Sequence record: NC_024125.2
DNA length: 64,000 nucleotides
From: Escherichia phage vB_EcoM_112
Reading direction: 5' to 3' (one strand)
The notes under the pieces: model-generated
Databases searched by the model: none
What the model was told of the DNA's origin: nothing
Seen by the model: the letters and a program-made list of their open reading frames with translations, nothing else
Program-made: the position numbers and the translations under genes
Shown: positions 40,282-48,430 of the stretch, in pieces
Layout of the letters: the number at the start of each line of letters is the position of its first letter
How positions within the stretch are numbered: the first letter of the stretch is position 1

Positions 40282-40784
40282 TTAAAAATATTTTTTAAAA
40301 CTCATCATAACTTTATCATCAACATCATTATCAATCTGTGCAACAAGGTAAGATGACAGTTCTACTTCTTGTGGCGCGGATTGAACATTATCAGAATTAA
40401 GATATTCACGAATCCAAGGATACGGATGTTTAACCGGAGCATCGGTAATTGGGCATGGAAGACCACACTGTTTCATACGAGATACAGTTAAGTAATCAAT
40501 AAAGCTCCACATGCTATTTGTATTTAATCCAGGAACATCGCCATCTTTAAATAAATGAACTGCCCAATCTTTTTCTTGGCGGTTAACTTCCATGAAAATA
40601 TCAACTGCTTCTTGTTCACACTCTTGAGCAATTTTAACCCATTCATCGCCATCAGTGCCAAGTTGAAGTTGACGAATAATATATTGAGTGCCTTTAAGGT
40701 GAAGCTGCTCATCACGTGCAATGAACTTCATAATCTTGGCATTACCTTCCATGATTTCCATGTTCTTATGGAAGTTGAAAGTAC
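40282..40784 (-). CDS. nrdB: Ribonucleotide reductase small subunit NrdB, exon 2
   Basis: Continues ...SFA|C-TFNFHKNMEIMEGNAKIMKFIARDEQLHL... (compare E. coli SFACSFAFAERELMEGNAK); junction codon TGT is split 1/2 across the intron. Confidence 0.85.
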
Positions 40785-40920
40785 CGTTATGTTCGATTGA
40801 GCTCGCTAATTCTCAACCCGTTCTCTTATGAACTGCTACATATTACTATGCAGACCAGACTATATCACAATCCCAGAGGGATTCTCCCCATTTCGAGTCG
40901 CTTGACCCTACGTCCGAAGA

Positions 40921-41730
40921 CTAGTCGTTGAACCTTGCTTTGCAATTGTCGCCGTGCCATCGTTTATATGTTGATGGTGATAAATCTTTCTTATCACAAT
41001 ATGGACAATTCAATTGAATTCTATTTGGATTTAATTTACATCTGTCATTATGTTTTAGATAAAATCCAGGACCTTTACCAATGTGACCGCAGAAATCACA
41101 TGTGATTTCTTTTTGTGCAGGATGGGTCCCGTTCTTAACCATTTCTAATGTTTTTGCTGATGTTCTTTTCTTATGGTCTTCTGACAAGAAATGATGTGAA
41201 CCGTCATTTACCCGTTTTGATTGAGTTTCTGACTGCATTTTACCACCGCAAAATACATGAGTACCTTCTTTTATAGCTGCAATATTGCGTTCTTTAACTT
41301 TTGCAATATGCTCAGCTTGTTGAAAATTATGTATACCTAATGCAACTCTATTTAAATTAGATTTACGCTGTATTTCACCATCTAAAAGATGAAATGTACC
41401 ATTTTCTATCTTAGATTTAATAGAGGCAATATTTTTAGCTCGTACTTCAGGGATATTAAAAATCTGGATTTCTCTAGATTTTGCGGCTTTAGAAGCTAAT
41501 TCAGAAATTTCTTCAGGAGAATATTTCATTCTAAGCTTTATAGCATGACAAGCCTGGTAATCTTTTTGAGCTAAATGTATATCATAATGTTCCTGTATAG
41601 AAAGGCACATCAAATTATCTAAATCATTATTTTCACGGTTACCGTCTTTATGATGGATTTCGTATGTTCTTCCATCAGAATCTTTAGGTATAGGTCCGTT
41701 AGCATCTATCCAAATTTTTCTATAGTTCAA
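40921..41730 (-). CDS. Intron-encoded HNH homing endonuclease (I-TevIII-like, full length)
   Basis: 269-aa ORF; HNH motif EIHHKDGNRENNDLDNLMCLSIQEHYDIH, C-terminal Cys clusters; apparent TTG start 7 nt after AAGAGGA. Confidence 0.8.
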   Translation of the reverse strand: MNYRKIWIDANGPIPKDSDGRTYEIHHKDGNRENNDLDNLMCLSIQEHYDIHLAQKDYQACHAIKLRMKYSPEEISELASKAAKSREIQIFNIPEVRAKNIASIKSKIENGTFHLLDGEIQRKSNLNRVALGIHNFQQAEHIAKVKERNIAAIKEGTHVFCGGKMQSETQSKRVNDGSHHFLSEDHKKRTSAKTLEMVKNGTHPAQKEITCDFCGHIGKGPGFYLKHNDRCKLNPNRIQLNCPYCDKKDLSPSTYKRWHGDNCKARFND

Positions 41731-41757
41731 TTGTGCATCCTCTTAAAAGTATAATCA

Positions 41758-41765
41758 TATTTATA
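41758..41765 (-). promoter_or_regulatory. T4-type late promoter (TATAAATA on minus strand) inside the nrdB intron
   Basis: Plus-strand TATTTATA about 28 nt upstream of the endonuclease start. Confidence 0.5.
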
Positions 41766-41875
41766 TTATACTAATTAAAGGTGCAAGCAAAACCTTGGCT
41801 GCTAGTTTTCCTATAAAGGACTTTCCAGCAATTAAAGGAGTTTTCGATAAACGTTACCGTTTAAAGGCGCATTTT

Positions 41876-42551
41876 ACGCAAAAGATACATAAAAACGAAT
41901 AGCTTCTAAGGCATTAATAACGTGCAAACAGAGGTAAAGAGATTTCATTAAAGCACGTTTAGCTTCGGCTTCTTGCTTAATAGCTCGGTTTAAACGAAAG
42001 TCGGCATCAGGAGATTCTTTAGCTAGTTCTACAAATTCTTTAGCATTTTCCCATTCACGGGTTTTAACCAAGACATCATCATAATAGCGACCAATAGATT
42101 CAGCACGTTTCATGATAGCTTCATCTAATACAATCTCATCAAATACCTTTGACGGATCAGTATAAAGATTTCGCATGATATGTGTATATGAACGGCTGTG
42201 AATAGTTTCACTAAAAGTCCACGTAGCAATCCATGTATCAAGGCTTGGGTCTGAAATTAATGACATAAGTACAGCAGATGGCGCACGACCCTGAATGCTA
42301 TCCAAAAGTGATTGATACTTCAGATTATTAGTAAAAATATTTTGCTGATACTGAGGAAGCTTATTAAACTGTGCAGCATCCATCATCAAGTTTACTTCTT
42401 CAGGACGCCAGAAAAATGACAACTGCTTTTCGGTCAAATCTTCAAAAACTTTATGACGTTGAATATCATAACGCGCAATACCAAGACCTGAACCAAAAAA
42501 CATGGGTTCTTTTAAAACATCAACTGGATTTGTATTAAAAACTGTGCTCAT
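41876..42551 (-). CDS. nrdB: Ribonucleotide reductase small subunit NrdB, exon 1
   Basis: MSTVFNTNPVDVLKEPMFFG...LEAIRFYVSFA; diiron/tyrosyl-radical R2 fold; frame closes at intron UAA. Confidence 0.9.
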
Positions 42552-42602
42552 AAATTTTCCGCTTAGTTAATAGTTGGTGACTCGTCCGTGAGTCAAATTA
42601 TA

Positions 42603-43592
42603 TCATAATTTACAGGATGAACAATCTTCAGCTTTTGGAGTTTCTATTTCATAATCATCAGTACCAGAACCATCACGGGTATTATGATAATAGAAATTTT
42701 TTCCGCCAAAATACCAGAAATACAAAAGGTCATCAATCATTATTGACATTGGAACCTTTCCTTTAGGGAAGATTTGGGGGTCATAGTATGTATTCGCTGA
42801 AGCTGATTGACATACCCATTTCAGCATAATAGCTACCTGCGTAAGATAAGGTTTATTACCTTTCTTAGCTAATTTCCATGTATAATCATAGAGGTCTATG
42901 TTATGCTCAATATTGGGCACGACTTGATTAAAGGAGCCCTCTTTTGATTCTTTAACAGAGACTGGTCCACGTGGAGGCTCGATACCGTTTGTACTGTTAG
43001 AAACTTGGGAAGATGACTCACATGGCATAAGTGCTGATAATGTGCTATTACGGATGCCAAAGAGCTTAAGGTCTTCCCGCAGCGACGACCAGTCACAAAC
43101 GTATTTTGGAGCTGCGATTTGGTCAATCTTTTTATTGTACCAGTCGATAGGTAGTTCGCCTCGAGACCAACGAGTGTCTGAATAATATTCGCAAGGTCCT
43201 TTTTCTTTGGCGAGCTTAATGGATGCTTTAATGAGTCCATACTGTAATCTCTCAAATAGTTCATGTGTTAAATCGTTAGCATCTTCATAAGAAGCAAAGT
43301 TACTTGCCAGCCAAGCTGCATAGTTAGTAACACCTACACCAAGGTTTCGACGCTTTTTAGCTTTTTCTGCTTCAGGAACTGGATATCCTTGGTAATCCAA
43401 AAGATTATCAAGAGCACGAACTTGAACTTCTGCCAATTCATTAATTTTATCTTGGTCTTGCCAGTCAAAATTATCTAGTACGAATGCAGAGAGAGTACAA
43501 AGCCCCACTTCTCCCTTGTTTTCAATAACTTTTATTGTAGTATACTCATCATCTTCGTAAAATTCATCTACAAATTCATAATCAATATTCAT
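42603..43592 (-). CDS. nrdA: Ribonucleotide reductase large subunit, C-terminal piece (nrdA-b-like), separately initiated
   Basis: 329-aa ORF: 23-aa acidic leader MNIDYEFVDEFYEDDEYTTIKVI then conserved ENKGEVGLCTLSAF... through the C-terminal CSSCKL; ATG overlaps the stop of the HNH ORF. Confidence 0.8.
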   Translation of the reverse strand: MNIDYEFVDEFYEDDEYTTIKVIENKGEVGLCTLSAFVLDNFDWQDQDKINELAEVQVRALDNLLDYQGYPVPEAEKAKKRRNLGVGVTNYAAWLASNFASYEDANDLTHELFERLQYGLIKASIKLAKEKGPCEYYSDTRWSRGELPIDWYNKKIDQIAAPKYVCDWSSLREDLKLFGIRNSTLSALMPCESSSQVSNSTNGIEPPRGPVSVKESKEGSFNQVVPNIEHNIDLYDYTWKLAKKGNKPYLTQVAIMLKWVCQSASANTYYDPQIFPKGKVPMSIMIDDLLYFWYFGGKNFYYHNTRDGSGTDDYEIETPKAEDCSSCKL

Positions 43593-44292
43593 TTAATTCT
43601 TTTACCTTTTTTCTAGTAATTCCTAAAGCTTTAGATGCTCGATGTATTGATTGATATTCTATACCGTTTATTTTTACAGCAATTAAGTTATGGGGTTTTA
43701 ATCCCTTTGGATGAGGTTTACTGACGAAAACTAAATTATCAAGTTCTGAAATCTTATCCAATTTCTTACACTTAAATCCTTTGTGATGCGACCGTTTACC
43801 TTTACAAACGGCTGACATTGCAGATGGATTTAAATTATGCTCTTTACAAAATTCGTTAAGACCTCGATGAATTTCCTCATGACCATCCGGAAATGTAAAC
43901 ACCCAAGATGTTTGAAGTCGAGATTTAACTTCTGGAGACATAGGAATACCTTTGTTCCAAGCTGGTTTGCCTTTATTATTTTCAGATACAGAAATAGCCA
44001 ATTTTCTTCTAAGCCACCCATGGCGTTTATTGGTGTTCTTTCGTTCAATATTATCTTCAGAATAAACACACATCATATTAGCGGCAAATATCAATTTATG
44101 ATTATTTGGATATATCTTTACTAATAATTGATGAGCTATGTAATGCTCTTCTGGTGTCAAATCTACCAGGTTTTCCTTTGTATCAGAACCACCAATACAC
44201 AGAGGTATAATATGGTGTGATTCGGTATAGCAATCTAATTTTCTATTCTTAGCTTTAGAAATAAGGTTATTGTAAATTTTAAAATAATCCAT
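43582..44292 (-). CDS. Free-standing HNH homing endonuclease (MobE-like) inserted within nrdA
   Basis: 236-aa ORF; HNH motif CYTESHHIIPLCIGGSDTKENLVDLTPEEHYIAH; own AGAGGAAAAG SD; lies between the two nrdA pieces. Confidence 0.8.
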   Translation of the reverse strand: MDYFKIYNNLISKAKNRKLDCYTESHHIIPLCIGGSDTKENLVDLTPEEHYIAHQLLVKIYPNNHKLIFAANMMCVYSEDNIERKNTNKRHGWLRRKLAISVSENNKGKPAWNKGIPMSPEVKSRLQTSWVFTFPDGHEEIHRGLNEFCKEHNLNPSAMSAVCKGKRSHHKGFKCKKLDKISELDNLVFVSKPHPKGLKPHNLIAVKINGIEYQSIHRASKALGITRKKVKELNEY

Positions 44293-44337
44293 AACTTTTC
44301 CTCTTGTTATGGATTATTTATTAACGGTCTGTGTACT

Positions 44338-45771
44338 TTATTTGCTTTGAATTATACCGCCAGGATTAGCTTCATAAAACTTAGCTACATCCGACTTCTT
44401 AATTTTGATTAAACGGGTTTGTTGGCTATTCACATCATTTGTTGGAATAGCAATTTCACAGCACAAGTTACTCTGACGAATAGGTGCCTTTTCACGAATA
44501 AATGGAGTATAGTTATTCGTATTATCAATGAACTGCACATAAATCCTTGCTGTTCCTGAACGTTCAGTCATGAGCAATTCAAATAGTTCACGGGCTTTAA
44601 TACGCTTTTTACGAATATTAGGGTCTTTTTCTGCTGCTTCGTATAATTCACGGAAACGGTCTTGGTCTTTAAAATAAGAATAATAAAGCTCGCCACCCAT
44701 TTCATGCGGACTGAACAAAGTAATGTAATCGTTCTTTCCGAATCGTTCCATCATCAAATCATTCAGTTGAACACCATAATCCATATGACGAATGCGGTTT
44801 TCTTCTACGCCTTTGTTATTTTTCAAAACGAGAAGATTTTCAACTTCCAAATGCCAAATAGGATAATAAGCAGTAGCAGCGCCGCCACGAATTCCACCCT
44901 GTGAACATGATTTAACAGCAGTCTGAAAATGTTTCCAAAAAGGAATAACACCAGTATGGCGTACTTCACCCATGCCAATCTTAGAACCTTCAGCACGAAT
45001 CATACCAACGTTAATACCAATTCCAGCGCGTTTAGAGATATATTCAACAATTGAAGCGGAAGCCTTATTGATAGACTTCAATGAATCTCCTGCCTCAATA
45101 ACAACACATGAACTAAACTGTCGAGTCGGAGTACGGCAACCAGCCATAATAGGAGTTGGCAATGAAATCTGTCGAGTAGATACTGCTTCATAAAAACGAA
45201 TAACATGTTTTAATCTATCAACAGGTTCATCTTGATGCAATGCCATTCCAATAGTCATAAATGCAAACTGTGGAGTTTCATAAATTTGACCAGTGGTTTT
45301 ATCTTTAACTAGATATTTTTCTTTTAATTGCATCGCCCCGGAATAAGTAAATTCCATATCCCGTTCGTGCTTAATTTTTGATTCTAAAAATGTAATTTCT
45401 TCTGCTGAATATTTTGACAATAATTCAGGGTCATATTTACCTTCATTTACACAGTAAGAAATATGGTCAATAAATGAACGTGGTTCATACTGCCCATAAA
45501 CATGCTTACGAAGAGCAAACATTAAACAGCGTGCAGCTACATATTGATAATCAGGTTCTTCAACCGAAATAGAATTCGCAGCAGCCTTAATGACAATAGT
45601 CTGAATGTCATCAGTTGTCATTCCATCACGGAGATATGATTTAATATTTTCATATAATTCATAAGGATCTACTGATGTTCCCTCAGCTGCCCAAGATAAA
45701 ACTTTAATAATTTTTTGTGGGTCAAAGCTCTGAGAAACACCACTACTTTTGATAACATTAATTAATTGCAT
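44338..45771 (-). CDS. nrdA: Ribonucleotide reductase large subunit, N-terminal piece (nrdA-a-like)
   Basis: 477-aa [28 protein letters not shown]...; includes ATP-cone, FSSC and SNLCCEIAIPT active-site stretch, then 26 unrelated codons and stop. Confidence 0.85.
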   Translation of the reverse strand: MQLINVIKSSGVSQSFDPQKIIKVLSWAAEGTSVDPYELYENIKSYLRDGMTTDDIQTIVIKAAANSISVEEPDYQYVAARCLMFALRKHVYGQYEPRSFIDHISYCVNEGKYDPELLSKYSAEEITFLESKIKHERDMEFTYSGAMQLKEKYLVKDKTTGQIYETPQFAFMTIGMALHQDEPVDRLKHVIRFYEAVSTRQISLPTPIMAGCRTPTRQFSSCVVIEAGDSLKSINKASASIVEYISKRAGIGINVGMIRAEGSKIGMGEVRHTGVIPFWKHFQTAVKSCSQGGIRGGAATAYYPIWHLEVENLLVLKNNKGVEENRIRHMDYGVQLNDLMMERFGKNDYITLFSPHEMGGELYYSYFKDQDRFRELYEAAEKDPNIRKKRIKARELFELLMTERSGTARIYVQFIDNTNNYTPFIREKAPIRQSNLCCEIAIPTNDVNSQQTRLIKIKKSDVAKFYEANPGGIIQSK

Positions 45772-46613: not shown

Positions 46614-47058
46614 CATTATGTTCAGATAAGGTCGTTAATCTTACCCCGGAATTATATCCAGCTGCATGTCACCATGCAGATCAGACTATATCTCCATCTT
46701 GATAAAGCAAGATGTCTATCGTTTCGAGTCACTTGACTCTACTCCCTAAAGGGATAGTCGTTAGGCATTTATGTAGAACCAATTCCAGTTATCAGATTTT
46801 ACACGATAAGTAACTAATCCAGACGAAATTTTAAAATGCCTCTTCCATCTCTTTTCAAAATCTTTAGCACTTCCTACATATACTTTATTGTTTAAAGTAT
46901 TTTTAATCTGATAAATTCCGCTTTTCATAAATACCTCTTTAAATATAGAAGTATTATTAAAGGGCAGTCCTACAATTTAGCACGGGATTGTCTACTAGAG
47001 AGGTTCCCCGTTTAGATAGATTACAAGTATAAGTCACCTTATACTCAGGCCTCAATTA
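46614..47058 (-). mobile_element. Group I intron in td (~445 nt) with an internally deleted endonuclease ORF
   Basis: Exon 1 ends ...UUGGGU, intron begins UAAUUGAGGCCUGAGUAUAAGGUG as recalled for the T4 td intron; length is ~570 nt shorter than the 1016-nt T4 intron. Confidence 0.88.
46761..46928 (-). pseudogene. In-frame deletion remnant of the I-TevI GIY-YIG endonuclease gene
   Basis: 55-aa ORF MKSGIYQIKNTLNNKVYVGSAKDFEKRWKRHFK|ISSGLVTYRVKSDNWNWFYINA = I-TevI residues 1-33 fused to the last 22; below the ORF-track cutoff. Confidence 0.8.

Positions 47059-48430
<1,372 letters not shown>

Follow-up and report, generated by a model that had tools for sequence, protein, structure and literature searches.

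The nrdB gene of Escherichia phage vB_EcoM_112 is interrupted by what is almost certainly a mobile, full-length group I intron of the RB3 type, the form found in the nrdB gene of the T4 family, with an intact I-TevIII gene for an HNH homing endonuclease. The evidence lies in the anatomy of the sequence, its identity to RB3 and T4, its conservation among related phages and the predicted structures of the RNA. Every aspect of the element that could be checked is already known, and its TTG start and internal promoter are standard for it in public phage genomes. In the following, the window is the whole stretch of 64,000 nt that was analysed, and all features described lie on its minus strand.

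The nrdB gene is split by a 1091-nt insert (41875..40785) into exon 1 (41876..42551) and exon 2 (40282..40784, with the stop codon). Exon 1 ends with ...TTT GCG T at 41876, which encodes ...RFYVSFA and supplies the first base of a Cys codon, and exon 2 begins with GT ACT TTC at 40784; the intron itself starts with AAAATGCGCC and ends with ...CATAACG. In the ORF list the frame of exon 1 extends from 42551 to 41874, its apparent stop codon TAA being made up of T 41876 and the two first bases of the intron. When the exons were joined, T|GT rebuilt the Cys codon (...RFYVSFA-C-TFNFHKNMEIMEGNAK) and a stop-free NrdB of 392 amino acids was obtained. The gene is thus divided exactly where an earlier sequence-only reading of this DNA had placed the split. 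The insertion point and both intron ends are the same as in RB3 and T4, and the assignment of 40785..41875 to an RB3-type group I intron is further based on the identity to RB3, a match of Rfam Intron_gpI to the 3' half and helix counts. Annotators should join nrdB across 40785..41875 and name the 269-codon ORF with the TTG start I-TevIII. Many phage records label these pieces as "hypothetical protein" or as two separate nrdB genes.

Over 1261 nt around the intron, the sequence is 99.5% identical to RB3, RB5, RB6, RB7, RB9 and RB10; for dozens of further Tequatrovirus genomes the figure is 98.7-99.4%. The nrdB intron of RB3 and its I-TevIII were reportedly the subject of a study by Eddy & Gold in 1991. 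RB3 (KM606994, AY262130) has the same host gene, insertion point, intron length (1091 nt), 269-codon ORF starting with TTG, Shine-Dalgarno (SD) sequence, TATAAATA box, hairpin, HNH residues and two zinc fingers, and nrdB is annotated there as a two-piece join. Only 6 of the 1261 nt differ, two in the ORF and four in the flanking exon 2, with none in the non-coding part of the intron. In contrast, the neighbourhood is not that of RB3: here mobE is absent between nrdA and nrdB, and nrdA is split. When the whole window was compared, the closest relative over 24 kb was Yersinia phage fPS-2 (96.9%), not RB3. The T4 nrdB intron shares the insertion site, the ribozyme core (differing at about 8 positions, all in loops or pair-preserving) and an identical control region. 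However, it is only 598 nt long, with 493 nt of the ORF missing and 22 open codons left from the TTG. The ORF annotated in T4 as a 97-aa defective I-TevIII has its ATG in a different frame, and its reading passes into that of I-TevIII at the deletion. By itself, the T4 intron is immobile (PMC1865063). The sequence-only reading had put the T4 intron at about 0.6 kb with a truncated ORF and the RB3 version at full length, and had likened the present intron to the latter; the lengths of 598 and 1091 nt agree with this.

The I-TevIII ORF (40921..41730) consists of 269 codons plus TAG and was assigned from the ORF list, Pfam, the RB3 annotation and the residue numbering. Its product matches Pfam HNH_3 (E 6e-13), with the HNH catalytic domain at residues 4-48 (41587..41721). 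A regular-expression search located two C-terminal zinc fingers, CX2CX12HX3C at C211-C231 (41038..41100) and CX2CX13HX3C at C242-C263 (40942..41007). The HNH motif and the C-terminal Cys clusters noticed before in this 269-aa ORF are therefore real, and so is its kinship to I-TevIII: 268 of 269 residues are identical to the RB3 enzyme, the sole change being at residue 23 (Y here and in the other translated full-length copies, D in RB3). The protein is identical to the copy of Shigella phage ESh24. RB3 I-TevIII was purified by Robbins et al. in 2007; H26A, H27A, N39A and H48A each abolish its cleavage, C211A/C214A and C242A/C245A impair its binding, residues 194-269 form a protease-stable fragment, and both its activity and intron mobility have been demonstrated (PMC1865063). 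All four catalytic residues and both pairs of cysteines (C211/C214 and C242/C245) are present here at the published numbers, counted from the TTG. Cleavage and homing as in RB3 I-TevIII may thus be expected from the enzyme of this phage, judging from its sequence. I-HmuI of phage SPO1 (PDB 1U3E) is likewise encoded by a phage intron and likewise has an HNH module followed by an extended DNA-binding region (PMC1865063), but it is a monomer and nicks DNA, whereas I-TevIII is a dimer with zinc fingers and makes a double-strand break. A search of solved structures with the I-TevIII sequence found no relative. Reverse-strand ORFs of 44-56 aa within the intron were set aside because they are short and overlap the conserved coding frame.

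The RNA is predicted to fold as a group I intron with a core of P3-P9, in which P7 would be formed from the R and S elements. The ORF was taken out in silico, 12 helices (P1-P6, P7, P7.1, P7.2, P8, P9 and P9.1) were drawn by hand, and their pairs were counted on 8 natural variants. In the 5' half of the core (41787..41875) these are the P1 guide (41870..41867), P2 (41863..41848), the 5' strand of P3 (41840..41835), P4/P5 (41829..41801) and the 5' strand of P6 (41793..41787). The 3' half (40785..40943), which is indicated by the partial Rfam match, by similarity to phage group I introns and by the pair counts, contains the 3' strand of P6 (40943..40937), the R element or P7 5' strand GTTCAACGACTAG (40933..40921), P7.1, P7.2, the 3' strand of P3 (40889..40884), P8, the S element or P7 3' strand GATATAGTC (40866..40858), P9 (40853..40836), P9.1 and the terminal G. 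U41876, the last base of exon 1, is paired with G41870 in a P1 of 4 bp, and the last base of the intron (40785) is G. All 63 pairs of the 12 helices were paired in the 8 variants (100%), compared with 33-44% when the partners were slid, a control biased toward the drawn helices because these were drawn from the window sequence. All substitutions within helices keep the pairing, and 4 pairs carry compensatory changes (two in P2, one in P5 and one in P9), a covariation that rests on few events because the 8 variants are 98% identical. At the gathering threshold, Rfam gave no match in the 38-46 kb region or in the whole window. A permissive scan found the 3' half only (Intron_gpI, RF00028; 40836..41076, 33.9 bits, E 1.4e-6, gathering score 50), the score being below gathering because the ORF splits the core into halves. 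DNA similar to that of the 3' core is also present in group I introns from many further phages, including one annotated as intron_gpI. Guanosine-dependent self-splicing is known for the T4 nrdB intron. Likewise, the present intron RNA would form a group I ribozyme and excise itself from the nrdB pre-mRNA, so that NrdB is restored. The I-TevIII ORF and its control region fill the loop of P6 (41786..40944), and the last 8 codons of the ORF plus TAG overlap the P6 3' strand, J6/7 and the P7 5' strand (R element). Owing to this overlap, a ribosome completing the ORF would be expected to unfold the catalytic core.

The start codon of I-TevIII is TTG (41730..41728). The SD sequence AAGAGGA (41738..41744) ends 7 nt before it, an in-frame TAA stands 4 codons 5' of it with neither ATG nor GTG in between, and the next in-frame ATG is codon 41, past the catalytic residues H26, H27 and N39. 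Translation from codon 41 was rejected, as these residues would be lost. Another ATG (41738..41736), whose A is the last base of the SD sequence, opens an out-of-frame minicistron ATG CAC AAT TGA (41727..41738), the TGA of which overlaps the TTG; initiation at this ATG was rejected because of its zero SD spacing and its only 3 open codons. The accepted protein begins at the TTG, because the published H26, H27, N39, H48, C211, C214, C242 and C245, together with the end at residue 269, fit only when TTG is codon 1. In the RB3 record I-TevIII is annotated with the same TTG at the corresponding coordinates. The sequence, this annotation and the residue numbering hence bear out what the sequence-only reading had said of the start, namely a TTG 7 nt after AAGAGGA with no in-frame ATG nearby and an ATG in another frame directly at the SD sequence. 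Nor would a corrected sequence be expected to reveal an in-frame ATG: the control region (81 nt) is held by 125 phage records, and sequencing error is excluded because 84 independent ones are at least 99% identical over it.

Intron variants were also sampled one by one from the phage collection. In the resulting sample of 11 introns, from records filed under Tequatrovirus, Mosigvirus, Dhakavirus and Gelderlandvirus plus a Klebsiella phage record under Marfavirus, the TTG is invariant (11/11; at least four Tevenvirinae genera), while codon 2 varies synonymously (AAC/AAT). The minicistron is also kept in 11/11, yet it lies within or adjoining the 3' arm of the hairpin described below. In E. coli, translation generally starts less efficiently at UUG than at AUG, and the UUG here may lower the yield of I-TevIII through intrinsically weak initiation. 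In a review, all three T4 intron endonucleases are given an SD sequence about 8 nt before the 'AUG initiation codon' (PMC2988022). As read from the sequence, the start codon of I-TevIII is UUG, contrary to that statement, which is a small correction. No statement of a UUG start of I-TevIII was found in the open-access texts consulted, including a full-text search for I-TevIII and UUG, and no N-terminal sequence of native I-TevIII was found in the literature.

A late-promoter box TATAAATA, identical in T4, is located at 41758..41765 with 27 nt between it and the TTG, practically at the distance of about 28 nt that had been read from the sequence before. From a T4 late promoter, a transcript 5' end that depends on gp55 and gp33 would be expected. 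The window contains 19 copies of TATAAATA on both strands, against 8.6 +/- 3.2 expected, and from this copy number the chance of a correct-strand copy at most 100 nt from a given start is below 1%. The late box is overlapped by a candidate middle promoter, consisting of the MotA-box-like TTTTGCTTGC, a 12-bp spacer and a putative -10 element TATAAT (41765..41770); the consensus of the MotA box and the 12-bp spacing are those of PMC2988021, and a predicted middle promoter is annotated at the corresponding place in the record of Yersinia phage fPS-2. Because of this overlap, expression may not be confined to late times but may include middle ones as well. A hairpin (41734..41785) that would sequester the ribosome-binding site encloses both promoter boxes between its arms, the 5' arm being UGCACCUUU (41785..41777) and the 3' arm AAGAGGAUGCA (41744..41734). 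RNA 41800..41700 has a predicted folding energy of -19.1 kcal/mol (z -2.1) with the SD sequence paired, whereas for RNA beginning after the late box only -1.4 kcal/mol and no stable structure were predicted.

The same arrangement has been described for T4, where the intron promoters were mapped by primer extension (PMC2988022) and where promoters and the hairpin at the ribosome-binding site were reported (PMC2988022, PMC3014915). Up to the TTG and beyond, T4 and the window share an identical control region, and therefore the primer-extension mapping should apply here as well. In the scheme described for T4 in 1988, long transcripts are not translated, whereas those that start at the intron's own promoter are open (PMC2988022, PMC3014915). 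Splicing as well as cleavage and homing by RB3 I-TevIII are, like the T4 promoters, known from the literature and probably the same in the present phage. Long transcripts that start at the upstream nrdA/nrdB promoters would have the SD sequence locked in the hairpin (41785..41734), and the ORF would be silent on them. Since the late TATAAATA and the MotA-type middle promoter are both situated between the arms, the intron's own transcripts would lack the 5' arm and the SD sequence would be exposed. UUG 41730 would then serve for initiation; no other start codon is suitably spaced from the SD sequence. Low and delayed translation may protect splicing, because the ORF ends inside P6 and P7; the same logic has been shown for I-TevI (PMC2988022). 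The late and possibly restrained expression put forward in the sequence-only reading is thus supported, with two refinements: expression is possibly middle as well as late, and the main known restraint is the hairpin that buries the SD sequence, not the TTG.

A further element may contribute to the control. The sequence TTTTGCTTGCACCTTTAATT (41773..41792), which is MotA-box-like and a putative I-TevIII operator, resembles the homing site at the exon junction, TTTTGCGT|GTACTTTCAACT, with 15 of 20 positions matching (5 of 500 shuffles equal that). The idea of a putative operator for I-TevIII was proposed in PMC2988022, and such a site may permit autorepression by I-TevIII. A comparable design is found in the T4 td intron with I-TevI (Gott et al. 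1988, as reported in PMC2988022; Gibb & Edgell 2010). There, too, the ORF of the endonuclease forms a loop on P6 and extends at its 3' end into the core, a late promoter is located inside the intron, the ribosome-binding site is hidden by a hairpin in long transcripts only, and the promoter is accompanied by an operator-like copy of the homing site. I-TevI differs in being a GIY-YIG enzyme with an AUG start, and autorepression has been demonstrated for I-TevI but only proposed for I-TevIII. The td intron in the window is short, about 440 nt, and is without I-TevI. Among the sampled variants, the hairpin loop with the promoter boxes is a hot spot of insertions and deletions. Phages ESh24 and G8 have lost TATAAATA by a deletion of 6 nt, in Klebsiella phage EI 1 nt of the loop is deleted and a frameshift directly follows the TTG, AV116 has a rearranged TATAAATA box, and UTK0003 and HY03 have insertions in the loop with TATAAATA kept. 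As some relatives with an intact ORF, e.g. ESh24, lack TATAAATA, either the late box is not indispensable or those copies are decaying.

This variation bears on the question of which promoter matters most. It is possible, though rather doubtful, that I-TevIII is expressed mainly from the MotA-dependent middle promoter (TTTTGCTTGC, 12 bp, TATAAT) and hence at middle times. The sequence fits the published consensus and spacing (PMC2988021), the annotators of fPS-2 predicted a promoter at this place, 'middle and late promoters' are mentioned for the intron endonucleases in PMC2988022, ESh24 has TATAAT and an intact ORF without TATAAATA, and the 5' arm of the hairpin would be missing from transcripts of this promoter too. 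However, the last two bases of the MotA box are off consensus, UTK0003 and HY03 keep TATAAATA despite insertions that change the sequence just after TATAAT, and all three intron endonucleases are stated to be limited to late times (PMC2790892). It is improbable, to a greater degree, that the UUG and the SD-abutting AUG-CAC-AAU-UGA minicistron form a selected attenuator, which would be a third layer of control beyond the hairpin and any autorepression. By decoy initiation or by termination-reinitiation it would keep the endonuclease at a very low level and so protect the folding of P6/P7 and hence nrdB splicing. The weakness of UUG as an initiator, its invariance and the overlap of the minicistron TGA with it would suit such a device, and low translation would be advantageous, since reading the end of the ORF would unfold P6/P7, as shown for I-TevI (PMC2988022). 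Yet almost the whole control region is invariant, so that the conservation of UUG and minicistron says little; the AUG lies in the 3' arm of the hairpin, where pairing with UGCACC suffices to explain its presence; and with zero spacing to the SD sequence, initiation at this AUG is unlikely.

There is very little likelihood that the ORF is a remnant in decay or already silent, or that its true start is downstream, at the ATT of codon 6 or the ATG of codon 41. It is true that homing endonuclease genes commonly decay after fixation, and about 40 phage records encode only the C-terminal third of I-TevIII, the deleted versions including T4, G8 and AV116. But the present ORF is intact and nearly identical to the biochemically active RB3 enzyme (PMC1865063), and the pN/pS of 0.156 against an 89%-identical Gelderlandvirus copy speaks against decay. 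A start at M41 would drop H26, H27 and N39, none of which is dispensable for cleavage, and the SD sequence lies 7 nt from the TTG.

The neighbouring nrdA gene is in two pieces with a mobE-like HNH gene between them, and this split makes it a more interesting neighbour than the nrdB intron. The new C-terminal tail of the split nrdA is basic and the new N-terminal tail acidic; the split nrdA of Aeromonas phage Aeh1 has the same tail design, which was shown there to be needed for reassembly of the enzyme.

The intron, endonuclease, promoters and hairpin at the ribosome-binding site were studied between 1986 and 2007, and dozens of deposited genomes contain the same sequence, so the element carries little weight as a discovery. 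In the phage collection, a query extended into the exon flanks matches 707 records, of which 83 have a full-length intron, and 86 public records from several Tevenvirinae genera encode at least 80% of I-TevIII. A scan of IMG/VR with the I-TevIII protein gave a single locus, a deleted variant. In a phage survey of 1991, RB3 is said to have been the one carrier. The full-length, presumably mobile form of the intron is common in the present phage collection, as these 86 records indicate.

The start codon of I-TevIII, the HNH homing endonuclease encoded within the nrdB intron, was UUG in all 11 introns checked, and in six of these the CDS is annotated from the UUG. This differs from the section on translational regulation of a review of the T4 intron endonucleases (PMC2988022), which gives an AUG initiation codon for all three. 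Comparison of variants showed that the introns are elsewhere near-identical and that the RBS hairpin has a hot spot of insertion and deletion in its loop, where both the TATAAT box and the TATAAATA box are located. For this comparison, the stretch aligned to window positions 41772..41750 was taken from the nrdB introns of phages ESh24 (L009), G8 (L005), AV116 (L011), EI of Klebsiella (L012), HY03 (L010) and UTK0003 (L006). In ESh24 the TATAAATA box is lost and the I-TevIII ORF is still intact.

The ORF itself has undergone at least three independent internal deletions, found in T4 (L004), G8 and AV116, where the deleted introns are 598, 592 and 592 nt long, respectively. It can be seen in AV116 that the deletion kept the TTG frame and removed the HNH domain, so that a 101-codon ORF with the zinc-finger part remains. 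In the intact protein, the HNH domain on one side and the zinc fingers on the other flank a tandem array of five degenerate repeats, whose units are about 21-25 aa long (41122..41440, minus strand; residues about 97-205). All five repeats share the core G-[TSI]-(x)-H-x-F (NGTFHLL, LGIHNF, EGTHVF, DGSHHF and NGTHPA). A match of residues 74-114 to Pfam FlgM, an anti-sigma-28 factor, was barely over the cutoff (26.2 bits against 25) and is probably a compositional artefact.

The neighbouring nrdA was also found to be interrupted. Its ORFs lie in two pieces with an HNH gene between them (42603..45771, minus strand), the N-part of 477 aa at 44338..45771 and the C-part of 329 aa at 42603..43592. The HNH gene (43582..44292, minus strand; 236 aa) has a Pfam I-HmuI_NUMOD-like match, its product shares 49% identity with RB3 MobE over its N-terminal 99 aa, and its stop overlaps the ATG of the C-part that follows. 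Where T4 NrdA has PDAEI, the split NrdA of the window has two new tails, a basic one at the C-terminus of the N-part (QQTRLIKIKKSDVAKFYEANPGGIIQSK) and an acidic one at the N-terminus of the C-part (MNIDYEFVDEFYEDDEYTTIKVIENKGEV). No group I intron signal was detected at the split at E<=0.1. The design corresponds to the 'genes in pieces' arrangement nrdA-a/mobE/nrdA-b of Aeh1 (PMC3045599), and the split arrangement is present in 33 phage records. Between nrdA and nrdB, where T4 and RB3 carry a free-standing mobE, the window lacks mobE and has a gap of only 51 nt (42552..42602).

In T4, the td intron has a length of about 1 kb and carries I-TevI. In the window, td contains an insert of about 440 nt (about 46617..47055, minus strand) with an Rfam Intron_gpI match at 46662..47068 (40 bits, E 6e-8, a score below the cutoff). 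It appears to be a td intron that lacks an intact ORF for an endonuclease.

Finally, NrdB of the window was compared with that of T4 position by position only, ungapped. The two are nearly identical except for a block in exon 1 (about 41950..42040, minus strand; residues about 172-200), which diverges strongly, with a net length difference of 4 residues. This block, upstream of the I-TevIII cleavage site, could represent a boundary of recombination or co-conversion.
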